The notes beneath the pieces are model-generated. The model had not been told where the DNA came from, ran no database searches, and saw only the letters and a program-made list of their open reading frames with translations. 40,539 nt of DNA from IMG/VR virus record IMGVR_UViG_2541047802_000008; one strand, given 5' to 3'. Positions within the stretch are counted from its first letter, which is position 1, and each line of letters begins with the position of its first letter. This document shows, one piece after another, positions 5,197 through 33,922 of this stretch. The position numbers were made by a program, and so were the translations under genes. Source of the DNA: a virus. Its lineage: Duplodnaviria > Heunggongvirae > Uroviricota > Caudoviricetes.

Positions 5197-5211
5197 TTAC
5201 CGTTGGGGTAA
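5197..5211. promoter_or_regulatory. Operator-like palindrome TTACC-GTTGG-GGTAA (OL region)
   Basis: Perfect TTACC-N5-GGTAA dyad between the repressor gene terminator and the leftward recombination operon. Confidence 0.6.
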
Positions 5212-5258
5212 TAATTATGCTTATTTGGTTTGGTGTCAATAGATATGAGTTAAAAAAA

Positions 5259-5273
5259 TTACCCGTAAGGTAA
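5259..5273. promoter_or_regulatory. Operator-like palindrome TTACC-CGTAA-GGTAA (OL region)
   Basis: Second perfect dyad 62 bp from the first, same intergenic region. Confidence 0.6.
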
Positions 5274-5284
5274 TCTATCTGGCA

Positions 5285-5309
5285 ATAAAAAAGCCGCCAT
5301 GAGGCGGCT
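5285..5309 (-). terminator. Rho-independent terminator downstream of the repressor gene
   Basis: Plus-strand AAAAAAGCCGCCATGAGGCGGCT; on the minus strand the GC hairpin (AGCCGCC/GGCGGCT) is followed by a U-run, immediately 3' of the repressor stop. Confidence 0.6.
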
Positions 5310-5330
5310 TACTTACTGAAAACTATAGTT

Positions 5331-5915
5331 TTATTGTTTGCTTTTTTCGTTCTGGTTGATGACAAATTCAATGTAACTTTCGATCTTTGCTTTCTCGGTT
5401 TCGGGTAACAATGCGTAGCGTGAGCGGTCATAGTTGATAGTCGCAGGGTCGTGCGGGTGAATCAGTAGTTCATATCCGTGACGCCCGAATGCGGATGCAA
5501 CATTCTCCAGGGTGGAAATGGAAACGCTGACCTCATTGTTTAACAGGCGGCTGATTGTCACCTGGGCGACGCCGGATGCGCGGTGAAGTTTTCCCTGTGT
5601 TGAAAGGTCGCGGCTTTCGCTCATCCAGCGTTCCAGGTTGTGAGCCGCCAGCTGACCAATGTCGCTTGGGCCGACAGGCTGAAAACCTTCCTGAGAAAGC
5701 GAGCGATCGATATCAAGCCAGTTACGGGGTTTATTGGCGGCAGCTTCAATTTTTCGCGCAACCTGGTCGCCGATAACCTTCTTGCCAAGAGCCCAGCGGT
5801 TTACCAGATTTGCCTGAGTTCCAAGTTTTTCTGCCATCCGCGTCTGAACACCATTGAATTCACGGTCGATCAAGTCGTTGAGATTTTGCCTGCGGACGTC
5901 CTGGATACTTTTCAT
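5331..5915 (-). CDS. Prophage repressor candidate: tandem HTH (two XRE/lambda-repressor-like DNA-binding domains), no peptidase S24 autocleavage domain
   Basis: 194 aa; N-terminal RRQNLNDLIDREFNGVQTRMAEKLGTQANLVNRW and a second HTH-like segment SGVAQVTISRLLNNEVSVSISTLENVASAFG; no LexA-like Ser/Lys cleavage module. Divergent from a Cro-like gene, flanked on both sides by operator-like dyads. No SD in the last 12 nt before the ATG (the nearest GAGG is about 15 nt upstream, too far). Confidence 0.7.
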   Translation of the reverse strand: MKSIQDVRRQNLNDLIDREFNGVQTRMAEKLGTQANLVNRWALGKKVIGDQVARKIEAAANKPRNWLDIDRSLSQEGFQPVGPSDIGQLAAHNLERWMSESRDLSTQGKLHRASGVAQVTISRLLNNEVSVSISTLENVASAFGRHGYELLIHPHDPATINYDRSRYALLPETEKAKIESYIEFVINQNEKSKQ

Positions 5916-5970
5916 TTTCTGGAAAATCGCCTCATATATGAATCAGTAGATGATTCAATTTAAAGCAATA

Positions 5971-6033
5971 TTACCCATCAGGTAAATGCACCTCATAGGT
6001 AACTATCCTTGATTTTTGTTACCTTATGGGTGA
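5971..6033. promoter_or_regulatory. Immunity-region operator cluster (OR-like): three TTACC-N5-GGTAA-type dyads overlapping divergent promoters
   Basis: Sites at 5971..5985 (perfect), 5988..6002 (GCACC-TCATA-GGTAA) and 6019..6033 (TTACC-TTATG-GGTGA). A candidate rightward promoter TTGTTA-N17-TATTAT overlaps the third site. Confidence 0.6.
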
Positions 6034-6069
6034 ATATTTATTATCTGAAATAAATATCAGGCAATAGCT

Positions 6070-6300
6070 ATGAGCGATAACGGACATTTCGATTTCAAAA
6101 AGCACTGGCTTGCACTTACTCCGGATGAGCGTGAAGCCTTCGCACAGGAAGCCGGAACGACGAGTCACTATATCCAGACTCACTTAACAGGTAAGCGAAA
6201 AATGCCAGGTAAAGTATTGATGAATGGGCTTTTTAAAGCCTGTAAAACAAGACAATGGCTGCGCTCAAAAGCAGAACTGGCATACTTCTTCTACTCATGA
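6070..6300 (+). CDS. Cro-like HTH regulator (76 aa)
   Basis: Divergent from the repressor gene; HTH-like segment FAQEAGTTSHYIQTHLTGKR; in the cro position of a lambdoid layout. Confidence 0.55.
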   Translation: MSDNGHFDFKKHWLALTPDEREAFAQEAGTTSHYIQTHLTGKRKMPGKVLMNGLFKACKTRQWLRSKAELAYFFYS

Positions 6301-6322
6301 TATCCAGCTACAACCCTCTGTA

Positions 6323-6345
6323 GACCGCCACCCGGCGGTCTTTTC
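6323..6345 (+). terminator. Rho-independent terminator (tR1-like) after the Cro-like gene
   Basis: GACCGCC-ACCC-GGCGGTC hairpin followed by TTTTCAT. Confidence 0.6.
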
Positions 6346-6355
6346 ATATCTATTC

Positions 6356-6370
6356 GTACCTCAAAGGTAA
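6356..6370. promoter_or_regulatory. Operator-like dyad GTACC-TCAAA-GGTAA (one mismatch)
   Basis: Lies just after the tR1-like terminator and upstream of the 6451 gene. Confidence 0.45.
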
Positions 6371-6450
6371 TAAAAAACCAAATCTGGTTGATCTTTTTTT
6401 TGTGTCAGCACAAAATAACCGTAATCCCAATACTAATAACAGGGCTTACC

Positions 6451-6651
6451 ATGGAAATCATTACACGTATTGATGCCGCAAAGCGCGGACTTAAACGCTA
6501 CTACACCGGAAAACCATGTAAGCATGGACATGACAGTGAACGCTGGGTTTACAACGGACACTGTGTTGAGTGCACCATGGAATCAAACCGTCGCATCAGG
6601 GCAGAGATTAAGCAGATCATGATTAATTCCTCCCCACAACACTCAAGCTGA
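6451..6651 (+). CDS. Small Cys/His-rich hypothetical protein (66 aa) in the cII position
   Basis: ATG at 6451; translation MEIITRIDAAKRGLKRYYTGKPCKHGHDSERWVYNGHCVECT has a C-x-H...C-x2-C pattern. The longer ORF-track start at 6388 would run through the terminator and operator, so the later start is preferred. Confidence 0.4.
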   Translation: MEIITRIDAAKRGLKRYYTGKPCKHGHDSERWVYNGHCVECTMESNRRIRAEIKQIMINSSPQHSS

Positions 6652-6666
6652 TAGCGGAGATTAATC

Positions 6667-7500
6667 ATGAGCAGACATGCAACAGATTGGGCCTGGGAGA
6701 CAGATCCAGGTAGCTCATCATTAAAGCTCATACTGCTCTCGATGGCTGACAGAGCCGATGAATATAACCTCTGCTACCCCAGCATAGAACGCCTCGTTAA
6801 AGACACTTGCCTGAATAAAAAAACCGTGCAGGCCGGGCTTATATCGCTCATGAAAATGGGGCTTATTTCAGATACCGGAGAGAGAAAGGGAGCGACAAAA
6901 AGAGTGCGGGTTTTCTCTCTTAATATAACCAAAAACGGGAACATTAAAGGCAACCGGGAGGGGGGCAATGAACCCGAAAACGGTAATGTTACCGAAAACG
7001 GGAATATACCCAAAAACGGGATGTTGAATGATCCCAAAAACGGGATGTTGAATGATCCCAAAAACGGGATCCAGAACCAGTCATATAACCAGTCATTTAA
7101 CCAAGAGAGGGAGAGCAGGACAAAAACCGGGGATTCTGTTCCTCATGACCCCGGCGCAAACAACGCCGTGATGAATAACTTTGTTCCTCCTGGTGGGCCA
7201 GGGCAATTAGGTAAATTTGTCATGCATGAACAATGGCAGCCATCAGATGACTTTCTTCGGAAAAGCTCATTGCAGGGAATCTACCTGGACAGTCTGCCAA
7301 CGGCACAGGAACTTGCAGAGTTCAGAATTTACTGGATGGCTGAGGGTAAGGCATACCATCAGGCACAGTGGGAGCAGAAGCTGGCAAGGCGCATCCAGTT
7401 CTGTAGACAGAAATCAGGTGAAGTCAGAAAGAGCCTTGACTGGCATAACACTGACTGGATAGATGAGGTGTGGGATGAAATCAACTCCAGAACTTCTTAA
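6667..7500 (+). CDS. Replication initiator (lambda O-like organiser: N-terminal HTH, internal repeat linker)
   Basis: GGAG SD before ATG 6667; N-terminal HTH-like region; internal repeated peptide (PKNGMLND x2 plus ENGN/KNGN variants) encoded by DNA iterons; immediately precedes a lambda P homologue. Confidence 0.72.
   Translation: MSRHATDWAWETDPGSSSLKLILLSMADRADEYNLCYPSIERLVKDTCLNKKTVQAGLISLMKMGLISDTGERKGATKRVRVFSLNITKNGNIKGNREGGNEPENGNVTENGNIPKNGMLNDPKNGMLNDPKNGIQNQSYNQSFNQERESRTKTGDSVPHDPGANNAVMNNFVPPGGPGQLGKFVMHEQWQPSDDFLRKSSLQGIYLDSLPTAQELAEFRIYWMAEGKAYHQAQWEQKLARRIQFCRQKSGEVRKSLDWHNTDWIDEVWDEINSRTS
6929..7072 (+). repeat. Iteron array (candidate origin of replication) inside the initiator gene
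   Basis: Six direct repeats of CC(A/C/G)(A/G)AAAACGG(G/T)A starting at 6929, 6973, 6991, 7009, 7033 and 7057, including two identical 24-bp units CCCAAAAACGGGATGTTGAATGAT; followed by a CCAGTCAT(A/T)TAACCA duplication. Confidence 0.6.
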
Positions 7501-8257
7501 TGAGTACGATCGCTTTCGTGGTGGGCATGACCACTCGACGGCGGTTGCTTCTGCTGACGATGAAAGGGCAAAGAAGGAGCAGGTTGCAAGAATTTTCAAC
7601 GAAATGTTTGTCCAGTTACAGGCTGCATTTCCAGGCAGCATCGCTGCTATCAGCGAGCAAGGAAAGCTAAACGAATTTCGAAAACAATGGATGCTTGCGT
7701 TTCTGGAGAATGGGATCACAACAATGGAACAGGTTAACGCTGGTATGCGCCACGCCCGCGCCAGTGAATCTCCGTTCTGGCCGTCGCCTGGGCAATTCAT
7801 CAAGTGGTGCAAAGACAGCAAGATGGTTCTTGGCGTCACCATTGACGATGTGATGGCGGAGTTTCACCGGTACAGCAAGGAAAAAAGTTTATATCCTGGT
7901 GGTCCCGAAAGATTCCCGTGGCGACATCCGGTTATGTACTGGGTCGTATGTGATACCCGCCGTGCAATGTATCAGCGCCAGCTTAGCGAGATTGAGGTTG
8001 AGAAACACGCGCGCAGGCTGCTCGATGATTGGGCGAAAAAGGTGGCTTCCGGACAGCAGATACCCGATCCGGTGATCAGCATACAGGCAAAGCCAGAACC
8101 CATGAGTACACCTCCGGACACAGGGAGAGACGTTTACCATCCACCAGGGCGAAGTTTCGGGTGCATGCCTAACGCCGCCACCCTTGGGGGAATAACACCG
8201 GCGCAGTGGCTGATGGAGGAATACAGGCGGGGAAAGTCGGCAGGATTTATCAAGTAA
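7475..8257 (+). CDS. Replication protein P homologue (lambda P-like DnaB helicase loader)
   Basis: Translation WMLAFLENGITTMEQVNAGMRHARASESPFWPSPGQFIKWC is nearly identical in pattern to lambda P (WVLAFRENGITTMEQVNAGMRVARRQNRPFLPSPGQFVAWC). GAGGTG SD before ATG 7475; overlaps the end of the O-like gene. Confidence 0.88.
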   Translation: MKSTPELLNEYDRFRGGHDHSTAVASADDERAKKEQVARIFNEMFVQLQAAFPGSIAAISEQGKLNEFRKQWMLAFLENGITTMEQVNAGMRHARASESPFWPSPGQFIKWCKDSKMVLGVTIDDVMAEFHRYSKEKSLYPGGPERFPWRHPVMYWVVCDTRRAMYQRQLSEIEVEKHARRLLDDWAKKVASGQQIPDPVISIQAKPEPMSTPPDTGRDVYHPPGRSFGCMPNAATLGGITPAQWLMEEYRRGKSAGFIK

Positions 8258-8263
8258 TACCAG

Positions 8264-8288
8264 CGCGATAGCGCATTTTTTTACGTCT
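8264..8288 (+). terminator. Weak intrinsic terminator candidate (tR2-like) after the P gene
   Basis: Short GCGC-GATA-GCGC stem followed by a 7-T run; the stem is only 4-5 bp. Confidence 0.3.
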
Positions 8289-8294
8289 CGATAA

Positions 8295-8309
8295 TTACCT
8301 GCTGGGTAA
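8295..8309. promoter_or_regulatory. Operator-like dyad TTACC-TGCTG-GGTAA
   Basis: Perfect dyad between the P gene and the nin-like genes. Confidence 0.55.
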
Positions 8310-8356
8310 TAAAATATTCTAAAATCTATTGATTTAGTGTCTTATGTGGTTTTTAA

Positions 8357-8371
8357 TTACCTCAGGGGTAA
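8357..8371. promoter_or_regulatory. Operator-like dyad TTACC-TCAGG-GGTAA overlapping the RBS of the 8375 gene
   Basis: Perfect dyad ending 4 nt before ATG 8375. Confidence 0.55.
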
Positions 8372-8374
8372 ATC

Positions 8375-8719
8375 ATGAGAAAACAGATACAGGCTCTTGG
8401 TCGACTCAAAACAGGCCAGATGAACAAAACAGAATCTGCGTATTGCCAGCACCTTGAGCAGCGTAAACGTGCAGGGGAAATCGCCTGGTATCGGTTCGAG
8501 GGTATCAAGCTGCGGTTAGCTGATAACACGTTTTATACGCCCGATTTCGCTGTGATGCTCGCCACCGGAGAGATGGAACTGCACGAAGTGAAAGGTTTCT
8601 GGACCGACGACGCCAGAGTGAAAACCAAAGTCGCCGCAGATCAGTATCCGTTCCGAATAATCGGGGTAACGGTTAAACCAAAGAAAGCAGGTGGCGGCTG
8701 GAACATCGAAGAGTTCTGA
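8375..8719 (+). CDS. Nuclease-fold phage protein (DUF1064 / VRR-NUC-like), nin-region gene
   Basis: 114 aa; pattern resembles small restriction-endonuclease-fold phage proteins; assignment from memory only. Confidence 0.45.
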   Translation: MRKQIQALGRLKTGQMNKTESAYCQHLEQRKRAGEIAWYRFEGIKLRLADNTFYTPDFAVMLATGEMELHEVKGFWTDDARVKTKVAADQYPFRIIGVTVKPKKAGGGWNIEEF

Positions 8720-8780
8720 ATCGACGATCTTTTTAGTTATCAATGTAATCAATAAGTTATGTGGATAAGCGAGGGTAAAG

Positions 8781-9713
8781 ATGGAAAGTAATATCAAAGG
8801 GTTAGTTGCCGCCGGGCATGAGATGGCTTCGGAACTGAAAGCAGAATGTGGTGCCGTTGATATGCGCAGTGTGGCAAAGCTGATCAGCGATTTGGCAACG
8901 CAACTGGAAGTGCAACTGGTGCGTGCTAATGCGCTGGCGGCGGGTACCTGTCAGCAACTGGCGCGTATCGTGCTGGCATCGCTGGAAGCAGAGCCTGTTC
9001 TGTATCAGTCCTGCACTCGCCCCACCTGGAATAGCGGTGTTCCGTGGACGGAATGGAAAGAACGTAGTCGTGAGTGCTACGAAGACGATTTGCGTTTTAC
9101 AGACACGCCTGACCATGCCGGTTGGATATACAAATGTCGAAAACTATATACCACTCCGCCAGCGCCGATAGCGTTAGAGGCCATTGAAAACGCAATTGAA
9201 TACATTCGTAGTATCGCTTTTCACATCGATGAAGACGATTACCACGGCAAACATATTGCGTATTTCATGCGACAAGCATTGGCCTGGCTGGAAGGGCATT
9301 CATGCAGCGACGACAGACTGGGTAAAGCCGACAATCAACCAGTACGCGGCAACCAGGCTGCCGAATCCAATCGCGGTAATGAGTGGACCGGCAATCCTGA
9401 TATTGATAACGCAATCATCATGCTCGACCGCATAGATACGGCGGAAAGTTACGATGATGACCGTATTGAGGCTGTTAAGGCTGTTTTGCGTAGACTGGCA
9501 GGCAACTCTCCGGTAACTCCGGATGGTTGGATAAGCTGTAGTGAGCGAATGCCCCCTCAAGATGATTGGATTTTAATTTATTCAAAGCACGGCGAGTATA
9601 TGGCAGGACAGGTACAAGGGGAATACGTGGAGTTGAGCGACGGCACTTTATCGTGGTTAGGGAACGCCTTGTTCTGGATGCCGCTACCAGAACCGCCGCA
9701 GGAGGCGAAATGA
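8781..9713 (+). CDS. DUF551-domain phage protein (C-terminal DUF551, N-terminal region unknown)
   Basis: C-terminal MPPQDDWILIY...WMPLPEPP is the typical DUF551 signature of lambdoid nin-region proteins. Confidence 0.6.
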   Translation: MESNIKGLVAAGHEMASELKAECGAVDMRSVAKLISDLATQLEVQLVRANALAAGTCQQLARIVLASLEAEPVLYQSCTRPTWNSGVPWTEWKERSRECYEDDLRFTDTPDHAGWIYKCRKLYTTPPAPIALEAIENAIEYIRSIAFHIDEDDYHGKHIAYFMRQALAWLEGHSCSDDRLGKADNQPVRGNQAAESNRGNEWTGNPDIDNAIIMLDRIDTAESYDDDRIEAVKAVLRRLAGNSPVTPDGWISCSERMPPQDDWILIYSKHGEYMAGQVQGEYVELSDGTLSWLGNALFWMPLPEPPQEAK

Positions 9714-9970
9714 TGGATGTAAAAGAGAAGGTTTTGCAGGTGATGCGTTCCCGGGCTGCCCTGCAAGATAAAGCTCTCGGCGGGGAATATCCATTCAGGA
9801 TGGCAACCTGGAATCTGCGGTTGGCAATGGAGAAGGAATTTCCTGATGAAGAATGGCGTTCGGCAGATTTGCGCAAAATTCTTATGGAGCTGGCTAAAGA
9901 CGGAACAGTATCCAAAGATACCCATGCCAGCCGGATTGGTCAGGCGGTATGGAGACTGGAGGTGAGGTAA
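9710..9970 (+). CDS. Hypothetical protein (86 aa)
   Basis: ATG 9710 overlaps the previous stop (ATGA) with GGAGG upstream; translationally coupled gene chain. Confidence 0.5.
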   Translation: MMDVKEKVLQVMRSRAALQDKALGGEYPFRMATWNLRLAMEKEFPDEEWRSADLRKILMELAKDGTVSKDTHASRIGQAVWRLEVR

Positions 9971-10251
9971 TGGCTAACCTGCAACTTGCCGTTAAAGGTG
10001 AATACTTCGATGCCATGATTCGCGGGGAGAAAACGGAAGAGTATCGCCTGTGTAATGACTACTGGAATAAGCGCCTCGTTAACCGTAAGTATTACCGCCT
10101 GATTATCACAAAGGGATATCCGAAGCGCGAAGACTTCAGTCGCAGAATTGACGTCCCGTATAACGGATATGAAATAAAAACAATCACACATCCGCACTTC
10201 GGTGATAAACCGGTAAAGGTGTTCGCGATAAAGGTAAATATTGATGGCTAA
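9970..10251 (+). CDS. Hypothetical protein, possible ASCH/PUA-like fold (93 aa)
   Basis: GGTGAGG SD and TAATG overlap with the previous gene; N-terminal LQLAVKGEYFDAMIRGEKTEEYR resembles ASCH-domain proteins (low certainty). Confidence 0.4.
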   Translation: MANLQLAVKGEYFDAMIRGEKTEEYRLCNDYWNKRLVNRKYYRLIITKGYPKREDFSRRIDVPYNGYEIKTITHPHFGDKPVKVFAIKVNIDG

Positions 10252-10582
10252 ATCAGCAGCAGAGCGCAAAGCCGCTCAGAGAGCCAGACAAGCTGCATCT
10301 GGTGTGCGTAAGCTGGAGATTGTGCTTGATGCTCAGGAAATTGAAATGCTGGAGCGTAACTGTGCCACACGTCGCCCCGGGCGTGCGCCTTACGAATTTG
10401 GTGAGTATATTGCGTTACTGATCCGCCAGGATGATGCACGCGTGCGCGGGCGTATAAAATCGATCAGCAGAAAACGTTGCGGTAAGTGTGGCGAGAGAGT
10501 TCCTGTGAATTCATGCCCGTGTAATGGTGACTCGCAATGCTGGGTGACCAAAGGCTGGCATGAAACGAAATTAATATTGTGA
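10244..10582 (+). CDS. Hypothetical protein with C-terminal Cys4 zinc-ribbon (112 aa); candidate late-gene regulator
   Basis: AAGGTAAA SD before ATG 10244; C-terminal CGKCGERVPVNSCPCNG; last gene before a promoter/terminator region preceding the terminase genes. Confidence 0.5.
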   Translation: MAKSAAERKAAQRARQAASGVRKLEIVLDAQEIEMLERNCATRRPGRAPYEFGEYIALLIRQDDARVRGRIKSISRKRCGKCGERVPVNSCPCNGDSQCWVTKGWHETKLIL

Positions 10583-10590
10583 CATGTCAC
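10579..10590. repeat. 12-bp perfect palindrome GTGACATGTCAC (copy 1 of 3)
   Basis: Exact palindrome overlapping the stop codon of the 10244..10582 gene. Confidence 0.7.
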
Positions 10591-10631
10591 GAGTGGGTTA
10601 TGCATGATGAATTTGATGGGCTTTGAATACT

Positions 10632-10658
10632 GCCGCCAACTATGGCGGCTTTATTTTG
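10632..10658 (+). terminator. Rho-independent terminator upstream of the terminase genes (tR'-like)
   Basis: GCCGCC-AACTAT-GGCGGC hairpin followed by TTTATTTTG; lies inside the N-terminal extension of the ORF-track terminase-small ORF, arguing for the later start. Confidence 0.55.
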
Positions 10659-10668
10659 CATGGTACTA

Positions 10669-10683
10669 TTACCACAACGGTAA
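10669..10683. promoter_or_regulatory. Operator-like dyad TTACC-ACAAC-GGTAA immediately upstream of the terminase small subunit gene
   Basis: Perfect dyad 18 nt before ATG 10701, followed by an imperfect copy (TTACC-ACGGT-GGTTA) at 10687..10701. Confidence 0.5.
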
Positions 10684-10700
10684 CTATTACCACGGTGGTT

Positions 10701-11297
10701 ATGATGCCTGCTGAACCTAAAACCTATAAACGCAAATCAACGCAATTTAAGCCACTAACAGCAATGCAGGAGGCTTATTGCCAGTCATACATCAAAACTC
10801 CTGAAAACCAGACTCAGGCAGCGATTAACGCAGGATTCTCCCCAAATACAGCGGCAGTTAAAGCCAGTGTCATGATGCGCGATGAACGCATTCAAAAACG
10901 CATTGCCGAGTTGATGGAGGAGCGCAACAAACGAATGCGCGTCAGTGCTGATTACGTTCTCATGCGCCTGGTGGAGATCGACCAGATGGACGTGATTGAT
11001 ATCCTCAACGACGATGGGAGCCTTAAGCCAATCCGCGAGTGGCCGAAAATCTGGCGCACTACGCTTAGCGGCTTTGATCTGTCATCGACCATCATGAACA
11101 TGAACGAGGATTCGATAGAGACAATCCTCAAAAAAATTAAATGGCCTGACAAGGTGAAGAACCTCGAGCTTATCGGTAAGCACGTCGACGTCAACGCGTT
11201 CAAAGAGCGCCTGGATGTTAATGTGAATGTGACAATTGCTGATCGCATAGCAGCAGCCAGGAAGAGACTGAAAGAACGTCAGGATGGCAATCAGTGA
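10701..11297 (+). CDS. Terminase small subunit
   Basis: Translation LTAMQEAYCQSYIKTPENQTQAAINAGFSPNTAAVKASVMMRDERIQKRIAEL matches the Terminase_2-type small subunit pattern; directly precedes and overlaps the large subunit gene. Confidence 0.75.
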   Translation: MMPAEPKTYKRKSTQFKPLTAMQEAYCQSYIKTPENQTQAAINAGFSPNTAAVKASVMMRDERIQKRIAELMEERNKRMRVSADYVLMRLVEIDQMDVIDILNDDGSLKPIREWPKIWRTTLSGFDLSSTIMNMNEDSIETILKKIKWPDKVKNLELIGKHVDVNAFKERLDVNVNVTIADRIAAARKRLKERQDGNQ

Positions 11298-12769: not shown

Positions 12770-12843
12770 TCCGCTTGAGGGGATAATGTTGTTGATATCC
12801 TCTGATGAGGATAAAACAAAGCCAGCTCATAGGCTGGCTGTTT

Positions 12844-12855
12844 GTGATATGTCAC
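12844..12855. repeat. 12-bp palindrome variant GTGATATGTCAC (copy 2 of 3, one mismatch)
   Basis: Between the terminase large gene and the convergent Gp49-like gene. Confidence 0.5.
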
Positions 12856-12859
12856 GGTG

Positions 12860-13234
12860 TTATTGCTCGCTTAACTTCTGCTTCAGCAAGTAACCTTCAA
12901 GCATCCAGATTTTGTTTACAGCATTCTGTCGGGCAATCTTCCGACCAATTTCTGCATCAAAGTTTTCCGGGCTTGCACAGGCGCTCTCTCCGGTGACGGT
13001 GAAGCCGTTGCGCAGCACCAGGACGCAGAAAGTGAGAAGGTGCAGAGCATCAGGGGTGGCTTCGACATAAGGCTCTGGATTATAAATAAGGTCATCTTCT
13101 TTAGCCTGATGATCCCCCTGCGCAGCAGTAAAAAAATGCTCACTGCAAATGAGACCTTCAATTTTCTCAGGAGTTACACGAGGTGCCGTTTTACCTTTCT
13201 CAACGATTTCTTTTTCGATTTGCTGGTCGTTCAT
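12860..13234 (-). CDS. Gp49-like phage protein (conserved, unknown function)
   Basis: 124 aa; AAGGTGAG SD before ATG 13234; C-terminal FDAEIGRKIARQNAVNKIWMLEGYLLKQ resembles N15 gp49-family proteins (from memory). Confidence 0.5.
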   Translation of the reverse strand: MNDQQIEKEIVEKGKTAPRVTPEKIEGLICSEHFFTAAQGDHQAKEDDLIYNPEPYVEATPDALHLLTFCVLVLRNGFTVTGESACASPENFDAEIGRKIARQNAVNKIWMLEGYLLKQKLSEQ

Positions 13235-13245
13235 AATCTCACCTT

Positions 13246-13438: not shown

Positions 13439-13515
13439 TGGCGTGGCATGCAGGATTCGAACCTGCGACCAACCGCTTAGAAGGCGGTTGCTCTGTCCAA
13501 CTGAGCTAATGCCAC
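13439..13515 (-). tRNA. tRNA-Arg (anticodon UCU, reads AGA), phage-encoded, CCA encoded
   Basis: Reverse complement folds as a cloverleaf: acceptor GTGGCAT/ATGCCAC, D-arm GCTC...GAGC, anticodon stem ACCGC/GCGGT with loop CTTCTAA, T-arm GCAGG-TTCGAAT-CCTGC, discriminator G, CCA. Related to but distinct from host argU as recalled. Confidence 0.9.
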
Positions 13516-13837: not shown

Positions 13838-13852
13838 TTACCTGAAAGGTAA
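13838..13852. promoter_or_regulatory. Operator-like dyad TTACC-TGAAA-GGTAA upstream of the virion gene cluster
   Basis: Perfect dyad about 90 nt before ATG 13943; followed by a TTAACGCGTTAA palindrome at 13856..13867. Confidence 0.5.
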
Positions 13853-13942
13853 TAATTAACGCGTTAAATGTCAACCTTCTACGATAAATAAATCATATGT
13901 GGTTAAATTGGTAATAATTTAATTGCGTACGGAGTCATTGAT

Positions 13943-14149: not shown

Positions 14150-14163
14150 CCGGAGTCATTGAA

Positions 14164-16136: not shown

Positions 16137-16138
16137 TC

Positions 16139-16834: not shown

Positions 16835-16842
16835 GAGAGGAA

Positions 16843-18324: not shown

Positions 18325-18334
18325 GGTGATATTG

Positions 18335-19649: not shown

Positions 19650-22126
19650 TGGCTATCAGTTGGATTCAGCCCAGCTTTGCTGGTGGTGAGATTGGACCGT
19701 CGTTGTACGGACGTATCGACATGGCGAAGTACCAGGTGGCATTGCGCAAGTGCGATAACTTTATCGTGCGGCAGTATGGCGGCGTTGAGAATCGACCTGG
19801 TACGCGTTTTGTCGGTGCCGCCAAATATCCAAATCGGAAATGCCGCCTGATCCCGTTCCAGTTCTCGACGGTTCAGACCTATGCTCTGGAGTTCGGACAC
19901 CAGTACATGCGCGTTATCAAAGATGGTGCGTTGGTGCTGAACAGCAGCAATGTTATTTATGAAATTTCCACGCCATATACTGAAGCCGATCTGTTCCGAA
20001 TTAAATTCACGCAAAGCGCAGACGTGCTTACGCTGGTTCATCCGGCATACCCGCCGAAAGAGTTGCGCCGCTATGCGCATGACAACTGGCAACTGGTTGA
20101 TGTGGTAACGAAGAACGGGCCATTTGAAGATATCAATATTGACGAGTCAGTGACGGTTTATGCCAGCGCCAGCACCGGGACAATTACGTTAACGGCAAGC
20201 GCCTCTATTTTTGGCGCGGAGCAGGTAGGCAAATTGTTCTATCTGGAACAGCCTGCAGTGGATTCAGTGCCGGTATGGGAAACCAGTAAGAGTACGTCGA
20301 TTGGCGATATTCGCCGTGCAGACAGTAACTACTATCGAGCCGTTACAGCAGGCAAAACAGGTACTTTGCGCCCTTCGCATACAGAAGGCACATCATGGGA
20401 TGGCTGGGGCGGATCCGGTGATGATGATACTGGCATTGAGTGGGAATATCTGCACAGTGGTTTTGGCATTGCCCGTATCACTGCTGCAAATGGAACTACT
20501 GCAACTGCCGAGGTGATTTCCTATATCCCTTCGCAGGTAGTTGGCGAGGATAATGCCAGCTATAAATGGGCTAAATATGCCTGGAACAGTGTTAATGGTT
20601 ATCCTGGCACTGTTGTTTATTATCAACAACGTCTTTACTTCGCCGCATCGACTGCGTTCCCTCAGACTATCTGGGCCAGCCGTACCGGGGATTATAAGGA
20701 TTTTGGCAAAAGCAATCCTACGCAGGATGACGACAGAATTATCTACACCTATGCCGGGCGTCAGGTTAATGAGATCCGCCACCTGATTGATGTCGGTTCG
20801 CTGGTGGCGCTGACTTCCGGAGGTGAGTACGTCATCACTGGCGACCAGAACAAAGTGCTTACCCCATCATCATTTGCATTCAGCTCTCAGGGATCAAATG
20901 GCTCGAGCAATGTCCCACCAATTGCCGTGGCGAATATTGCTCTGTTCGTCCAGGAGAAAGGCAGTGTTGTCCGTGATCTGGCCTACTCATTCGATGTTGA
21001 CGGCTATCAGGGGAACGACCTGACCATCCTTGCCAATCATCTTTTTCAGAAGCACAGCATTGTTGACTGGTGCTTCTCAATAGTCCCTTACTCCAGCGCC
21101 TTCTGCATCCGTGATGACGGTAAATTACTGGTGATGACCTATTTGCGTGATCAACAGGTTTTTGCATGGGCACCACAGTCCAGTACCGGAAAATATGAAA
21201 GCACATGCAGTATCAGCGAAGGCAATGAAGATGCGGTGTATTTCGTCATTAACCGAACCGTTAACGGGCAAACAGTGAGATACATCGAGCGACTGTCCAG
21301 CCGTTTATTTACCAGCGATGAAGATGCTTTCTTTGTTGATTCTGGCCTTAGCTATGATGGAAGAAATACGTCTGACAGAACGATGACCATCACTGGTGGT
21401 TCTGGCGAATGGGATTACCGCGCGGAATATACAATCAGTGTTTCTGGTGGTGCGTACTTCACCAGTAGTGATGTCGGCGCGCAACTACAGTTCCCTTTCC
21501 CTTATACCGGAACTGATCCTGATACTGGCGATGAGGTGTCAAAAGAATTACGTTGCGACATTATTTCTGTAACCAGCAATACCGCTGTAGTGGTTCGTGC
21601 TAACAGGAACGTCCCGCCATCCCTCAGGAATGTGGCCACCACGAACTGGCAGATGGCGCGCCGGACATTTGGAGGCCTGTCTCATCTTGAAGGCCAGACC
21701 GTAAACATTCTCTCTGATGCGAACGTGGAACCACAGAAAGTGGTTTCCGGAGGTGCCGTCACGCTGGAATCACCGGGGGCTGTAGTGCACATCGGCCTGC
21801 CAATAACTGCTGAATTCGAAACACTGGATATCAACATTAACGGACAGGAAACGCTGCTGGACAAAAAACAGGTGATCCCGTCCGTTACTCTGGTTGTGAA
21901 TGCCAGTCGCGGCATCTGGGCGACTACGCCCGGCGGTAAATGGTACGAATATCCACAGCGTGAATTCGAGTTCTACGATGATCCTGTTGATGATGCTACC
22001 GGAAAAGTAGAAGTGAAACTGGACAGTAACTGGGGCAAAAACGGACGTGTAAAAATCCGTCAGCTTGATCCGTTGCCGCTGTCTGTTCTTGCCGTTATTC
22101 CTCGCCTTACTGTTGGTGGGTTCTGA
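19649..22126 (+). CDS. Large tail protein (tail tubular protein B / nozzle-like)
   Basis: 825 aa; follows the gp11-like gene as in T7-like gene order; family assignment uncertain. Confidence 0.55.
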   Translation: MAISWIQPSFAGGEIGPSLYGRIDMAKYQVALRKCDNFIVRQYGGVENRPGTRFVGAAKYPNRKCRLIPFQFSTVQTYALEFGHQYMRVIKDGALVLNSSNVIYEISTPYTEADLFRIKFTQSADVLTLVHPAYPPKELRRYAHDNWQLVDVVTKNGPFEDINIDESVTVYASASTGTITLTASASIFGAEQVGKLFYLEQPAVDSVPVWETSKSTSIGDIRRADSNYYRAVTAGKTGTLRPSHTEGTSWDGWGGSGDDDTGIEWEYLHSGFGIARITAANGTTATAEVISYIPSQVVGEDNASYKWAKYAWNSVNGYPGTVVYYQQRLYFAASTAFPQTIWASRTGDYKDFGKSNPTQDDDRIIYTYAGRQVNEIRHLIDVGSLVALTSGGEYVITGDQNKVLTPSSFAFSSQGSNGSSNVPPIAVANIALFVQEKGSVVRDLAYSFDVDGYQGNDLTILANHLFQKHSIVDWCFSIVPYSSAFCIRDDGKLLVMTYLRDQQVFAWAPQSSTGKYESTCSISEGNEDAVYFVINRTVNGQTVRYIERLSSRLFTSDEDAFFVDSGLSYDGRNTSDRTMTITGGSGEWDYRAEYTISVSGGAYFTSSDVGAQLQFPFPYTGTDPDTGDEVSKELRCDIISVTSNTAVVVRANRNVPPSLRNVATTNWQMARRTFGGLSHLEGQTVNILSDANVEPQKVVSGGAVTLESPGAVVHIGLPITAEFETLDININGQETLLDKKQVIPSVTLVVNASRGIWATTPGGKWYEYPQREFEFYDDPVDDATGKVEVKLDSNWGKNGRVKIRQLDPLPLSVLAVIPRLTVGGF

Positions 22127-27477: not shown

Positions 27478-27482
27478 ATTAA

Positions 27483-29957: not shown

Positions 29958-29965
29958 AAGGAGAT

Positions 29966-30091
29966 ATGATGGTTCAAATAACTTTTATTGTACTAATATG
30001 TGCAGCGTTTTTATGCTATTCATACATTTTGATAAAAATGGGTTTCAATTGGAATCTCTGTTGCGTGCAGCGGCATGGTTCGGCTTTGTAG
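29966..30091 (+). CDS. Small hydrophobic peptide candidate (41 aa)
   Basis: AAGGAG at 29958..29963 followed by two in-frame ATGs at 29966 and 29969; translation MMVQITFIVLICAAFLCYSYILIKMGFNWNLCCVQRHGSAL. An overlapping alternative frame (29998..30129) also encodes a hydrophobic peptide; which is real is unresolved. Confidence 0.25.
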   Translation: MMVQITFIVLICAAFLCYSYILIKMGFNWNLCCVQRHGSAL

Positions 30092-30176
30092 TATTCGGAA
30101 TTGTATTGTTCGGAAGAATAATAAAATAACTAGTTAATTTGTGGATTGGTGCTGTTTTTCCATGATAGGGGTAATT

Positions 30177-30557
30177 ATGAGAAAAGTATTTTTGATTTTT
30201 GGATTTATGCTTCTCGTTGGATGCCAGTCAGCTGCACAGTTTGAAAGAAATATGCTTACGTGGCGCGGGCAGAGTATAGACGCAATGGTTCAGCAGTGGG
30301 GGTATCCTCAGGGAGAGCTTACATCTCCAGATGGAAACAGAGTGTATGTTTACTCAAGCTCTGGTAGTTATAACGTACCACAAACCACAACGTATAATAC
30401 TACGTCTAATCTAATTGGTAATACTATATATTCAAACACATACGCAACAACTGATGGCGGTTATACACTCCATTTCAGTTGCTCTGTTTACGTTGAGTTT
30501 GGTGCTGATAAGATTATTAAAAATGTTACATGGCGCGGTAATAATTGCGTTGCGTGA
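30177..30557 (+). CDS. Lipoprotein (126 aa) with signal peptide and lipobox LVGC; accessory gene
   Basis: MRKVFLIFGFMLLVGCQS signal/lipobox; Thr/Ser/Tyr-rich mature region; AT-rich surroundings. Confidence 0.6.
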   Translation: MRKVFLIFGFMLLVGCQSAAQFERNMLTWRGQSIDAMVQQWGYPQGELTSPDGNRVYVYSSSGSYNVPQTTTYNTTSNLIGNTIYSNTYATTDGGYTLHFSCSVYVEFGADKIIKNVTWRGNNCVA

Positions 30558-30565
30558 CATGTCAC
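30554..30565. repeat. 12-bp perfect palindrome GTGACATGTCAC (copy 3 of 3)
   Basis: Overlaps the lipoprotein stop codon and directly abuts the terminator hairpin. Confidence 0.7.
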
Positions 30566-30590
30566 AGGCCGCTTTCGCGGCCTTGTTTTT
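30566..30590 (+). terminator. Rho-independent terminator after the lipoprotein gene
   Basis: AGGCCGC-TTT-CGCGGCCT hairpin followed by TGTTTTT. Confidence 0.6.
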
Positions 30591-30750
30591 AACGAATGCC
30601 ACCGCCACCCGGGCGGGAATCCGCAGAACGCCCACCGCAGCGTGAGCCGTCAGCAGCAGTGTCGCTGTCGTGCTGACAACGACCGGCAAAGGCCTGAGTT
30701 GAAGCTACCAGAGACAACAAAACGAACAGTGCAGCAAATGCTTTTTTCAT
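30589..30750 (-). CDS. Small secreted protein candidate (53 aa) with signal peptide
   Basis: MKKAFAALFVLLSLVASTQAFA signal peptide followed by a short Cys-containing Gly/Arg-rich region; weak RBS. Confidence 0.3.
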   Translation of the reverse strand: MKKAFAALFVLLSLVASTQAFAGRCQHDSDTAADGSRCGGRSADSRPGGGGIR

Positions 30751-30821
30751 TGTGAAATTTCCATCTATAAGCCACCTCAATGTGGCGTCAATGAGTGTAG
30801 CACTGACTTTTGTTTCGTCCA

Positions 30822-30844
30822 CAAAAAAGCCCGCAGCGCGGGCT
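30822..30844 (-). terminator. Rho-independent terminator ending the minus-strand accessory operon
   Basis: Plus-strand AAAAAA-GCCCGCAGCGCGGGC; on the minus strand the hairpin is followed by U6, immediately 3' of the 30844 stop. Confidence 0.55.
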
Positions 30845-31392
30845 TACTTTTCTTCAGGTTTGTTGTCTTCAGATTTCTTCTTGATGCTTGGTTTTTGTCT
30901 AAGAACGAAAATACCAGCCACTGCAACAACTGTACCGATCACTGTGCCAGCTAGAACTTCATGGCCTGTTAAACCTAATAATGTTGCACAAGCTACTGTA
31001 AAAATAGTTGCACTCAGGCCAAACCACTGCCCACGTTTATCTCTATTAATAGCCCCGTCAAGTGCCTTTTCCTCCATTTTCTGGCGGTGAGCAAACTCCT
31101 TCTCCGTCAGCTGGAAGATGCGTTCGGGGGCATCAGGTAAAATATCCTGATACCCGCGAAGCAGATAGGGGGGAGGAAGCGGACCCTGAAACGCATGGTG
31201 AGCGACAACTATCTCCTGAATTTCAGGGCGATCAAGAACTCTTGTGAAGGCATCTGGGTGTTGAATGATCTCGTTACTTAGCCCTTCCTCAACTTCCTCG
31301 AACTCAGTTTCTTCGTTATCACTTGGTTGCCCAATAGATTTTTGCATATTTGTCGAAGGACATTCCTTTAGCTTCTGGTTTTCCTCTTGCAT
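30844..31392 (-). CDS. Membrane protein (182 aa) with acidic N-terminal region and two C-terminal TM helices (DUF2335-like)
   Basis: C-terminal hydrophobic segments WFGLSATIFTVACATLLGL and LAGTVIGTVVAVAGIFVL followed by a Lys-rich tail; RGQ motif before the first TM. Start at 31392 overlaps the upstream gene by 74 nt; a later start at 31347 is possible. Confidence 0.5.
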   Translation of the reverse strand: MQEENQKLKECPSTNMQKSIGQPSDNEETEFEEVEEGLSNEIIQHPDAFTRVLDRPEIQEIVVAHHAFQGPLPPPYLLRGYQDILPDAPERIFQLTEKEFAHRQKMEEKALDGAINRDKRGQWFGLSATIFTVACATLLGLTGHEVLAGTVIGTVVAVAGIFVLRQKPSIKKKSEDNKPEEK

Positions 31393-31645
31393 TTGAGTTT
31401 TTCCCTGTCACTATTGCCCATTTTCCGCCAGCAGGCGCTGCAATTTTTTTTCCGTTCTTTACTATATATTCAGCATAAACACGATTTTCTGACCGTCTGA
31501 GATCGTCTCCGACCATATTCATGTCTCTTGATATAACTTTGACGACAGAGTCTCGGTTTAAAGCCTTGGCATAGTTGGAGCCAGGAACGATACCCAAAGG
31601 GGTGCCAGACTCTATAGCCAGCTCCTTGACATATCTTCTGCTCAT
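31319..31645 (-). CDS. Hypothetical protein (108 aa)
   Basis: ATG at 31645 with GAGG 6 nt upstream, 22 nt downstream of an operator-like dyad; basic protein, function unknown. Confidence 0.45.
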   Translation of the reverse strand: MSRRYVKELAIESGTPLGIVPGSNYAKALNRDSVVKVISRDMNMVGDDLRRSENRVYAEYIVKNGKKIAAPAGGKWAIVTGKNSNARGKPEAKGMSFDKYAKIYWATK

Positions 31646-31666
31646 ATGAACCTCAACCAATCGACT

Positions 31667-31681
31667 TTACCAATCGGGTAA
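31667..31681. promoter_or_regulatory. Operator-like dyad TTACC-AATCG-GGTAA
   Basis: Perfect dyad between the Ant-like gene and the 31645 gene. Confidence 0.5.
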
Positions 31682-31766
31682 TTTTAAACATGAGTATAAT
31701 GCTTTTAACTGCAACGAGTGTAAACAATTATTGATAATTGTAGGCACATCCATGTGCCGCCGCTCG

Positions 31767-32423
31767 TCAGAAGAACCCTGCTTTGTCGTTGATATACTCC
31801 GCGTGGGTCTGGATATCACGCAGGCATTTGCTCACACCGACGATGTAGCAGAACATGGTGGTCAGCTCCGCCGCCGCGCCCGATACGTCGTGCCCGTCGT
31901 CCTGTAACTGGTTCAGCAGATTCATCAGCAGTGAGTGCTCCGTCAGGCCGAGAACACCAGACGGCGAGTGAATCAAACTGCGGTAGCCGGGCTTCAGCGG
32001 GGCGCTGTATTCTTTTTTGTCTTCCAGCTTGATCGCCTCCATAATGGCGGGCATGAAGCCTGACAAGACCTTCTCCACTTTTGTTTCTTGTTGTCTTAAA
32101 CGTTTCTCGCATTCAATGAAGTAGCGTCGCACCTGGCGACCTTTTTCGTTACGCTCGACCATCGCCAGCTCTTTGGCTGTATCAAGGGTGAGGTGGTACT
32201 CTTTGCGGTTGTGGCCGCCTCTACCAGATGTTTGCTTTCCCAAATTGGAAAGCAAAATATAGTCTTGATTTTCAATGAATTCGTATTCTGATATGCGATT
32301 TGTAATCCATGCTGCAAACACCTTTTTAACACCTAAAAAAGCGTGCAGATCGCGGGCATTACAAAGTAGGGCTGTTTCGTTAGATATAGTGCCGTTGAAT
32401 ACGGGGATGAGTTGAGCGTTCAT
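31767..32423 (-). CDS. Ant-like antirepressor candidate (218 aa): N-terminal AntA-like domain plus C-terminal domain shared with the 33574..33831 protein
   Basis: N-terminal [33 protein letters not shown] resembles the AntA/AntB antirepressor N-domain pattern (from memory). The C-terminal ~70 aa align with the 85-aa protein at about 45% identity (IH(S/T)P.GV..L.E.S.LM.LL..L..DG..V.G..AELT...Y......DLQTH). Confidence 0.6.
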
Positions 32424-32580
32424 GATGGCGTCTCCACTTAGCGAATTACATCACCACCGCTGAGACCAATCAGATGGTGGTGAACTGAACGGAGTTGGTC
32501 TTACCGGCCTAAGTGGTACCGGCGTCCTTTCGGACCCCCATTCAGCCCACCATAATTCTGGCATGACTGTGCTATACGCA

Positions 32581-32665
32581 TAAAAAAACCACGTCTGGCG
32601 TGGTATGCGCCACTTAGTAATCCGGGAGACCAATCCCGGCACTGGATTTTGCCAGTGCCCGATTA
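32581..32665 (-). ncRNA. Candidate small RNA or attenuating leader upstream of the Ant-like gene
   Basis: Minus-strand unit: candidate promoter near 32660-32700 (TTTACA-N18-TAGTAA on the minus strand, overlapped by an operator dyad), two adjacent hairpins (32640..32657 and 32622..32639) and an intrinsic terminator (CCACG-CCAGA-CGTGG plus U7, plus-strand 32582..32603). No convincing ORF. Confidence 0.3.
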
Positions 32666-32694
32666 CTATGGCACAAGAGGAGTGCAATGTAAAT

Positions 32695-32709
32695 TTACCG
32701 CAAAGGTAA
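32695..32709. promoter_or_regulatory. Operator-like dyad TTACC-GCAAA-GGTAA
   Basis: Perfect dyad overlapping the candidate promoter of the leader/Ant transcription unit. Confidence 0.5.
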
Positions 32710-32787
32710 TGATAAACGCGAAGAAATATTAAAATCAACCGTATTTGGTTGATTGCGTTTAACGCTTGATCACCTGAAAGCAAGATA

Positions 32788-32802
32788 TTACCTTTAAGGT
32801 AA
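32788..32802. promoter_or_regulatory. Operator-like dyad TTACC-TTTAA-GGTAA
   Basis: Perfect dyad 21 nt upstream of ATG 32823. Confidence 0.5.
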
Positions 32803-32822
32803 TGTTATTGTGAGGAAAAGCA

Positions 32823-33551
32823 ATGGAAGTTTTCTGGATAGTTGTTGGTGTGGTTGCGGTGATTATTTACGTTATCAACCAGAACAAGACTAAGATCTCT
32901 GATCGTACGGTCGTTAATCATAACAAAACGATAAAGACCGAAGATGGGGAGATAACGATTAATCGTACACAGGTGATAGAACACACCTCTACTCAGTTTC
33001 AAAAAACTGGAGGTAATGCGCCTAATATTTCCGCACCTCCTGCTTATGATAGTGCGGTAATCCAGACATATTATAAACAGCAGGAGTTAGCAAAAGAGAG
33101 GCAACTGATTCAGCCAAAGCCGTTTACAGCTGAGCTTCCACCTGGAGTGTCAACGCGTCCGGCATATCATGGAAGATTCCCTGGTGATGACATATCGTCT
33201 CAGTCATCTAAAAAAGCACCTCAGGCAGTATCAGAGCCAGCAAGAATACCTTCTGTATCGCCGCCAAAAGAAGAATCAGCTAACAGAGTTTCAAGTGGTA
33301 GCAAGCAGTGCTTGCGATGCAGAATAAACCTACCATATGAAAAATTCAGGAAATCGTCAAAAAATCCAGATGGATTGACTAAGTGGTGTGCAAGGTGTCT
33401 CGATGGCCCAAAGAATACACGCCATATGAAGTGGTGCCCAATTTGTAATGTCCGCAGAAAACGAACAAGCTTTTACCCTAATAATCAAAATGCGGATGGC
33501 TTAATGGCATGGTGCAAAACGTGCTGGGACGAGCACAAAGCGAAACGATAG
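32823..33551 (+). CDS. Membrane-anchored protein (242 aa): N-terminal TM helix, low-complexity linker, two tandem Cys4 zinc-ribbon repeats
   Basis: TM helix FWIVVGVVAVIIYVI; C-terminal repeats C-LRC-x22-WC-ARC and C-PIC-x24-WC-KTC, each with DGL before WC; GAGG SD. Confidence 0.6.
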   Translation: MEVFWIVVGVVAVIIYVINQNKTKISDRTVVNHNKTIKTEDGEITINRTQVIEHTSTQFQKTGGNAPNISAPPAYDSAVIQTYYKQQELAKERQLIQPKPFTAELPPGVSTRPAYHGRFPGDDISSQSSKKAPQAVSEPARIPSVSPPKEESANRVSSGSKQCLRCRINLPYEKFRKSSKNPDGLTKWCARCLDGPKNTRHMKWCPICNVRRKRTSFYPNNQNADGLMAWCKTCWDEHKAKR

Positions 33552-33575
33552 GCCGCTCTTGCGGCCTTTAAATTT
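33551..33575 (+). terminator. Rho-independent terminator after the zinc-ribbon protein gene
   Basis: GGCCGC-TCTT-GCGGCC hairpin followed by TTTAAATTT. Confidence 0.5.
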
Positions 33576-33831
33576 ACCGGGTTTGTTTTCGTAATTGTTC
33601 GGCACAATAGTCGAGATGTGTTTGCAGATCCTGCATAGACATCTGTGAGCTGGTGACGTAGTTAATCAGTGCAGTCAGTTCGGCAAGTGGGCCATCGACA
33701 TTAAATCCATCCTTATCGAGATCCCGGAGTAATTTCATCAAGTGCGATCCCTCCACCAGTGACCTGACGCCTCCCGGCGTGTGAATCCTTTCGGTAAATC
33801 CGTCTTCCAGTGGATAGTGATACTGCTGCAT
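33574..33831 (-). CDS. LexA-controlled small protein (85 aa), paralogue of the Ant-like C-terminal domain; candidate SOS-inducible antirepressor or modulator
   Basis: ATG at 33831 with GGAGAAG SD; a near-consensus LexA box lies 22 nt upstream. The ORF-track start at 33954 would run through the LexA box and operator and is rejected. Confidence 0.6.
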   Translation of the reverse strand: MQQYHYPLEDGFTERIHTPGGVRSLVEGSHLMKLLRDLDKDGFNVDGPLAELTALINYVTSSQMSMQDLQTHLDYCAEQLRKQTR

Positions 33832-33852
33832 CTTATCTTCTCCATGCAATAA

Positions 33853-33868
33853 CTGTATATTTATACAG
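33853..33868. promoter_or_regulatory. LexA (SOS) box CTGTATATTTATACAG
   Basis: With flanks AACTGTATATTTATACAGTA it matches the enterobacterial LexA consensus TACTGTATATATATACAGTA at 18 of 20 positions; a TATAAA -10-like element lies inside the box on the coding (minus) strand. Confidence 0.75.
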
Positions 33869-33907
33869 TAGCAAATAATTTGTTTGCTATCCAGCACGTT
33901 TTGCAAA

Positions 33908-33922
33908 TTACCCGAAAGGTAA
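33908..33922. promoter_or_regulatory. Operator-like dyad TTACC-CGAAA-GGTAA
   Basis: Perfect dyad upstream of the LexA-box promoter, between it and the tailspike gene. Confidence 0.5.

Follow-up and report, generated by a model that had tools for sequence, protein, structure and literature searches.

Dispersed ATTACC-N5-GGTAAT palindromes in a phiV10-like prophage as probable operators of its epsilon15/SPC32H-type immunity repressor

A 40,539-nucleotide stretch of DNA from IMG/VR virus record IMGVR_UViG_2541047802_000008 (Caudoviricetes), called the window throughout, carries a 15-bp palindrome, TTACC-N5-GGTAA, in 15 perfect or near-perfect copies. Our analysis suggests that these sites are very probably the operators of the immunity repressor encoded at 5331-5915, a Rep protein of the epsilon15/SPC32H family, and we infer the binding of Rep to them in this phage from sequence comparison. 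The window is about 97% identical to the Escherichia phages phiV10, phiv142-3 and PAS61. It begins at the integrase gene, and an attachment core, attgagtgggaatgatt, at 39362-39378 represents the attR core at the prophage end, with host DNA beyond; the same sequence has been reported as the attP of phiV10, epsilon15 and ZX5 (PMC9782041). On the strength of the attachment core and the start at int, we identify the window as an integrated phiV10-like prophage of the genus Uetakevirus, the epsilon15-like podoviruses. Three regulatory proteins named below are encoded here:

5331..5915, minus strand: immunity repressor Rep, 194 amino acids, with an N-terminal DNA-binding domain followed by a middle and C-terminal region for oligomerization and Ant binding
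6070..6300, plus strand: small Cro-like regulator, divergent from rep, assigned to PHROG family phrog_35 (transcriptional repressor)
33574..33831, minus strand: small antirepressor Ant, 88% identical to SPC32H Ant

The 15 copies of the palindrome are distributed over the window as follows, with promoters and operons named as predicted:

5197..5211: operator OL1, perfect, centered on the +1 predicted for PL, the leftward early promoter, and conserved in six genomes
5259..5273: operator OL2, perfect, 62 bp from OL1, centered at -62 of PL and adjoining the rep terminator (5291-5310)
5971..5985: OR operator nearest rep, perfect, overlapping the -35 and spacer of the candidate rep promoter
5988..6002: middle OR operator, GCACC...GGTAA, two mismatches, 17 bp from the 5971 site
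6019..6033: OR operator, one mismatch, inside the candidate rightward early promoter PR; imperfect in all relatives
6356..6370: operator, one mismatch, after the cro terminator (6322-6341) and at about -60 from the candidate replication-operon promoter
8295..8309: upstream operator of the late-early pair, perfect, before the DUF1064 operon, following a terminator T-run and 62 bp from 8357
8357..8371: downstream operator of the late-early pair, perfect, abutting a candidate -10; conserved in six genomes
10669..10683: terminase operator, perfect, abutting an extended -10, after the terminator at 10632-10649
10687..10701: second terminase operator, one mismatch, 18 bp further downstream, extending over the ribosome-binding and start region of terS (start codon ATG at 10699 or 10702)
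13838..13852: virion operator, perfect, upstream of the gp3/portal operon
31667..31681: accessory operator, perfect, at the promoter of the leftward genes 31660-30844
32695..32709: accessory operator, perfect, at the promoter of an isrK-like/C4-like RNA leader and AntA-type gene
32788..32802: accessory operator, perfect, 20 nt upstream of gene 32823-33551
33908..33922: tail-fiber/ant operator, perfect, between the divergent ant and tail-fiber genes

A preliminary description of this DNA had listed 11 perfect copies, and a scan of both strands agrees with it exactly. Dinucleotide-preserving shuffles contain on average 0.03 perfect copies, none of 100 shuffles reaches 11, and the half-site counts alone would predict 0.10. 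The gap between the arms never departs from 5 nt: with 0-4 or 6-11 nt between TTACC and GGTAA, the window has no copy. The four imperfect copies named in the same description (5988, 6019, 6356 and 10687) were all recovered, and we regard them as real sites because they are conserved at the same positions in relatives; the remaining two-mismatch matches are mostly intragenic and are about as numerous as chance would give (11.4 expected). Strictly non-coding sequence, defined by maximal open reading frames (ORFs), makes up 6.8% of the window and holds eight of the 11 perfect sites. The other three fall inside ORFs with over-extended starts, namely terS (whose ORF has a TTG start upstream of a terminator, and whose epsilon15 counterpart begins 20 nt past its site), the ORF at 32451-32783 (which overlaps two Rfam RNA genes) and ant (which as a maximal ORF runs across its own LexA box). 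Once these three starts are corrected, every copy is non-coding, as had been proposed when the sites were described as intergenic or lying at start regions. The terS start annotated in phiV10 (record 41-715) is likewise a TTG, equivalent to window position 10623; a strong terminator and the two operators all follow it, and the ATG at 10699 or 10702, in agreement with the epsilon15 annotation, is the more likely start.

The 118 perfect sites collected from 14 genomes extend the consensus to the 17-bp A-TTACC-N5-GGTAA-T, in which N5 is A/T-rich, with A or T at its center in 96% of cases. Between orthologous sites the spacers vary freely and the arms are unchanged, the pattern expected of a dyad contacted by a protein. 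Pair spacing over all genomes is sharply peaked, with 62 bp in 24 pairs and 61 or 63 bp in four more, and further clusters occur at 17-18, 30, 47-48, 76 and 138 bp. Among host factors, the E. coli GntR operator contains TTACC-GGTAA without a gap; it was set aside, since it misfits both the strict 5-nt gap and the phage-restricted distribution of the motif.

The assignment to Rep rests on comparison with related phages. PhiV10, Tyrion, SPC32H and BUCT554 all carry the motif at orthologous positions; in the SPC32H genome the matching places include the 62-bp pairs, and the 62-bp spacing of OL1 and OL2 is kept in all relatives. The preliminary description had proposed a search of related prophages, and in all nine retrieved loci that encode a full-length Rep homologue (down to 52-55% identity) TTACC-N5-GGTAA is the most frequent palindrome, again at orthologous positions. 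These loci come from Superficieibacter, Erwinia, Klebsiella, Citrobacter and Scandinavium, from a locus with a Serratia-type Rep, and from two metagenomic contigs. The motif is missing from all five loci that carry only a distant N-terminal homologue of Rep, and at the helix where Rep reads NLVNRW these homologues have SIVNQH or TQVSRL. NLVNRW itself is invariant between Reps that are only 43% identical and varies slightly in more distant ones (NLISRW, NLVSRW, NVISRW). Covariation of operator and recognition helix was not seen among the sampled Reps down to 52% identity, as all their loci keep TTACC-N5-GGTAA; with no operator variation in the sampled loci, only the presence or absence of the motif relative to the distant N-terminal homologues is informative.

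An existing annotation points the same way. The RefSeq record of the type phage, Salmonella phage epsilon15 (NC_004775.2), contains seven dispersed features labeled "protein_bind, repressor, lysogeny", all of which read as (A)TTACC-N5-GGTAAT:

epsilon15 12-27: site before terS, orthologous to window 10669
epsilon15 2931-2947: site before gp3, orthologous to window 13838
epsilon15 19895-19911: site between gp19 and the tail-fiber gene, orthologous to window 33908
epsilon15, between gp37 and the repressor gene (OL): three sites, orthologous to window 5197/5259
epsilon15, before the resolvase gene of the late-early operon: one site, orthologous to window 8295

The record does not list the OR sites, the other operator of the late-early pair or a site at the lysis operon, which our scan recovers, and the record of phiV10, the closest annotated relative of the window, lists no repressor site.

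The Rep of the window aligns over its full length with Rep of the Salmonella phage SPC32H, a Uetakevirus (PDB 5D50_A; phmmer E 3.5e-42, residues 1-190); it is 99% identical to phiV10 p40 and 43% identical to the Reps of epsilon15 and SPC32H. Its Pfam matches are restricted to helix-turn-helix (HTH) families, all of the HTH_3 type, and a peptidase S24 (autocleavage) domain is absent. SPC32H Rep is reported to be a tetramer that binds palindromic DNA with DNA-binding domains paired from different dimers, and to be disassembled by the tetrameric antirepressor Ant (PMC9638917). It is also reported to repress genes for lytic growth, and its tetramerization fold is linked to DNA looping in pLS20 Rco (PMC9986798). 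Rep of phage ZX5, reported to be identical in sequence to phiV10 Rep, lowers endolysin and holin transcripts by at least 99.97% on overexpression and abolishes free phage (PMC9782041). The window also has a perfect LexA box, CTGTATATTTATACAG (CTGT-N8-ACAG), at 33863-33878 in the ant promoter region, conserved in relatives. By every feature testable at the level of sequence, the window belongs to the epsilon15/SPC32H Rep-operator-Ant system: it carries ATTACC-N5-GGTAAT dyads at the positions of the epsilon15 repressor-site annotation, a repressor homologous to SPC32H Rep over its full length, and a LexA-boxed Ant together with a repressor that lacks an autocleavage domain. The earlier proposals that a single regulator's operator set covers early, late and accessory operons, and that the 5331-5915 protein is the candidate binder, both fit this evidence, the first agreeing with the comparative data and the epsilon15 annotation and the second with the full-length homology and the co-occurrence of the motif with full-length Rep. 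The same holds for the OL/OR-like core that had been recognized around rep. The labels "cII-position" and "nin-like" of the preliminary description are loose.

Intrinsic terminators split the prophage into short units, nearly every one of which opens with an operator; outside the immunity region, operators lie at nine regulatory regions. Promoters were called from consensus matches together with conservation, and all the assignments given here are predictions. On the left, the candidate PL on the minus strand (TTGACA at 5239-5234, N17, AATTAT at 5216-5211) matches the consensus at 10 of 12 positions, and the last T of its -10 is the first T of the OL1 TTACC. Among the three OR sites, the one at 5971 shares bases with the -35 and spacer of a candidate rep promoter that is conserved and lies on the minus strand (TTTACC N17 TTAAAT, -10 at 5963-5958), an overlap that suggests negative autoregulation. 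The ortholog of the 5988 site is perfect in epsilon15 and SPC32H. The 6019 site fills the gap between a conserved -35 (TTGATT, 6009-6014) and -10 (GAATAT, 6032-6037) of the candidate PR; an alternative PR around the same site would be TTGTTA N17 TATTAT (6016-6044). Further right, the candidate replication-operon promoter reads TTGATC (6388-6393), N17, CAAAAT (6411-6416), and BUCT554 carries a second near-site directly adjoining this promoter's -10. The candidate late-early (DUF1064) promoter (TTGATT at 8329-8334, N17, TTTAAT at 8352-8357) is flanked by both operators of its pair, and upstream of terS a conserved extended -10, TGG-TACTAT (10661-10669, consensus TGN-TACTAT), has the first T of operator 10669 as its last base. 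Candidate promoters on the minus strand abut the accessory sites at 31667 (TTAAAA N16 TAAAAT, 31708-31681) and 32695 (TTGATT N18 TATCAT, 32738-32709). In all, five operators (5197, 8357, 10669, 31667 and 32695) share their first T with the last base of a -10-like hexamer, and an operator that starts at the last base of the -10 would cover the start of transcription.

Taken together, these predictions would describe a prophage that intrinsic terminators cut into about ten short units: those for early left, early right, replication, late-early, terminase, virion and tail-fiber functions, and three cassettes with accessory or antirepressor genes. Almost all of them open with one or two ATTACC-N5-GGTAAT palindromes, through which Rep would directly silence each unit in the lysogen. 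Where the site covers the +1 or the spacer (PL, PR, terminase, 8357 and two accessory promoters), Rep would block initiation itself, and the 62-bp pairs (5197/5259 and 8295/8357, about six helical turns apart) may be bound cooperatively, possibly with one tetramer bridging both sites. Since Rep lacks the S24 domain, induction would proceed through an antirepressor, and by homology with SPC32H the LexA-controlled Ant would take the Rep tetramer off the DNA.

Several observations weigh against assigning the whole set to Rep. Consensus promoter matches between 4900 and 14200 are not enriched over shuffles, and at 6356, 13838 and 33908 the best promoter candidates lie 58-79 bp downstream of the site instead of under it. 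The lysis operon of the window (intergenic region 37147-37452) is without a TTACC-N5-GGTAA site, where epsilon15 has a perfect one and phiV10, Tyrion, SPC32H and BUCT554 have one with a single mismatch. The sites in the epsilon15 record may have been annotated from prediction alone. Finally, co-occurrence cannot tell Rep from the Cro-like protein as the binder, as the latter belongs to a narrow family, adjoins rep in every locus checked, and is the better conserved of the two (76% identical to epsilon15 gp39, against 43% for Rep).

This last point leads to the explanation that the sites are bound mainly by another phage regulator, either the Cro-like protein or the regulator at 10241-10582, for lytic-phase control. 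The Cro-like protein faces rep across the three OR sites from within a family annotated as transcriptional repressors, and lambda Cro and CI share their operators. A prophage repressor, however, needs to silence the terminase, virion and tail-fiber genes, at which the palindrome also stands, whereas Cro-type proteins are usually confined to the immunity region. The epsilon15 record moreover assigns the sites to the repressor, and tetrameric binding to palindromic sites has been reported for SPC32H Rep (PMC9638917). We therefore consider control mainly by a regulator other than Rep improbable, and think it possible that the Cro-like protein is a second binder of the OR sites, which it would then have in common with Rep.

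Alternatively, the palindrome could be a phage-specific promoter element read by RNA polymerase or an activator, as its arm GGTAAT contains TAAT, several sites abut or contain -10-like hexamers, and a second conserved motif, CATATRTGGTT, marks the operator regions too. This we judge very unlikely: a perfect dyad with a fixed 5-nt gap is unlike a polymerase recognition element, the position relative to the -35 and -10 differs among sites (+1, spacer, -60 to -80), two copies bracket a single promoter both at PL and at 8357, and ordinary sigma-70-like hexamers adjoin the sites. Scarcely credible is the explanation that the repeats are RNA hairpins (terminators or processing sites), restriction or modification targets, or recombination boundaries of mosaic modules, for although many copies adjoin terminators at module junctions where gene content differs between relatives, and the phage encodes a DNA methyltransferase, the hairpin and terminator version was rejected on the weak folding of the 17-mers as RNA (-3.3 to -5.3 kcal/mol) and the lack of any U-run after them, genuine GC-rich terminators stand beside the sites, a modification target would be expected inside genes too, where no copy remains after start correction, and conserved positions with freely varying spacers are what a protein-contacted dyad would show.

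With Rep as the preferred binder, the system can be set beside those already known. SPC32H Rep-Ant (PDB 5D50, 5D4Z) is the closest structurally characterized counterpart, resembling the window in the full-length homology of Rep, the 88% identity of Ant, the LexA box and the places of the palindromes; it differs in that Rep of the window is only about 43% identical, and in that the window has additional operator-bearing cassettes and an AntA-fused Ant-like protein. Epsilon15 (NC_004775.2) shares the identical 17-bp motif at orthologous positions at terS, gp3, the tail fiber, OL and the late-early operon. Phage P1 offers a looser parallel, with one repressor, C1, acting at many dispersed operators that serve separate operons, including late functions, and with an immI c4-RNA/ant module in which an antirepressor operon lies behind a C4-type RNA under the primary repressor; in the window a C4 Rfam match likewise lies downstream of operator 32695. 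The P1 operators are, however, asymmetric 17-bp sequences and C1 is unrelated to Rep, whereas the window has perfect dyads and an HTH_3-type Rep whose homologue is reported to be a tetramer, so that the immI-like C4 RNA element is the only one in common. The resemblance to lambda lies in divergent repressor and cro-like genes over a three-site OR, multiple sites at PL, and probable cooperative or looping binding; the differences are a Rep without the S24 domain, operators beyond OL and OR (at replication, terminase, virion, tail-fiber and accessory operons), and units separated by terminators, with no antitermination cascade identified in the window. A likeness to stoperators, which had been suggested earlier, did not hold up: the stoperators of L5 gp71 are also repressor sites spread in large number over a genome, but they are asymmetric, orientation-dependent and located within transcription units, while the sites in the window are perfect dyads, intergenic, and at or just upstream of promoters. 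The Bacillus plasmid conjugation regulator pLS20 Rco (TetDloop domain) is reported to have the same type of tetramerization fold as SPC32H Rep (PMC9986798), and DNA looping of the Rco type would be compatible with the 62-bp pairs in the window.

The variable region between the virion operon and ant consists of three cassettes, each with an operator of its own, and at the DNA level all three are found only in the Uetakevirus group. The first comprises the leftward accessory genes at 31660-30844, encoding a phrog_10654 protein and a DUF2335 membrane protein; gene 32823-33551 (phrog_6762, with a zinc-finger C-terminus) belongs to a cassette shared with TL-2011b. The AntA-type cassette runs from its operator and promoter through an isrK-like RNA (Rfam, minus strand, 32582-32658, 67.7 bits) and a C4-type antisense RNA (32473-32557, 61.2 bits, same strand) to an AntA-domain gene (32423-31767, minus strand), an arrangement that resembles the P1 immI operon. 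The C-terminal 75 residues of its protein are 40% identical to the small Ant of SPC32H. In phiV10 the same leader and operator stand ahead of a Bro-N gene. No antirepressor cassette of this kind with different operators was found in other phages: Stx phages share only the AntA coding part, and the RNA leader with its operator occurs in this phage group alone.

A second conserved motif, yCATATrTGGTT, occurs on the plus strand at 5222, 6380, 8343, 13896, 32742, 33954 and 37384. The pattern TATNTGGTT has 10 matches against 1.04 expected, and the copy at 6380 has the variant AATCTGGTT. All copies in regulatory regions are on the plus strand, even where the copy sits in the spacer of PL, which reads leftward. 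At the gp3 and tail-fiber promoters, and at the lysis promoters of relatives, it takes the form CATATRTGGTT-N7-TAWAAT, a candidate activator-dependent late promoter. The -10 of the gp3 and tail-fiber promoters lies within an operator half-site, TGGTT-N5-GGTAAT, and at gp3 this conserved element (13900-13915) is exactly 62 bp downstream of operator 13838. As a sigma-54, DnaA or IHF site the second motif misfits in spacing and sequence, as judged by eye against the consensus sequences.

Other features were noted in passing. In all relatives (five sequences) a one-mismatch site, ATTACCYTAAAGGTATA, lies about 45-60 bp upstream of int, and the corresponding copy of this prophage is out of view because the window starts at int. 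Six iteron-like direct repeats with the core CCCAAAAACGGGA, 18-24 bp apart, occur at 6921-7073 within the replication-initiator gene 6667-7500 and are probably the phage replication origin. A tRNA-Arg gene (anticodon TCT; 13439-13515, minus strand) lies between the terminase and virion operons. Another palindrome, GTGACATGTCAC, is present at 10579-10590, 12844-12855 and 30554-30565, one copy having one mismatch; all copies are at operon ends, two of them next to a rho-independent terminator and the third preceding one by about 40 bp, and several related prophage loci hold two or three copies. The O-antigen acetylase gene that phiV10 and Tyrion carry between the tail-fiber gene and the lysis cassette is absent from the window.

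A dispersed Rep operator system of this kind is already known, because the operator set is annotated in the type phage epsilon15 and the repressor has been structurally characterized, and the result for the window is in this sense a rediscovery. It places the prophage in a characterized immunity system and provides a complete operator map for a phiV10-type genome, useful both for annotation and for phiV10-based O157 reporter phages. What may be undescribed are the 62-bp geometry of the paired sites, the rule that operators abut the -10, and the lack of operator diversification at 42-55% Rep identity. We put forward, tentatively and as a rather doubtful extension, that one Rep tetramer with two DNA-reading heads bridges operators 62 bp apart and traps the promoter between them in a very small loop, and that the half-site is invariant across the family, in at least nine enterobacterial genera and at 42-55% protein identity. 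If so, immunity specificity in these phages would reside in the pairing of Rep with Ant or in host range, and not in the recognition of operator by repressor, which would be unusual for temperate phages. The 62-bp pairs, the operators abutting the -10, the invariant specificity and the operator-tagged cassettes all bear on how a tetrameric repressor could silence a prophage operon by operon, and the invariant operator bears on whether these phages are all cross-immune.

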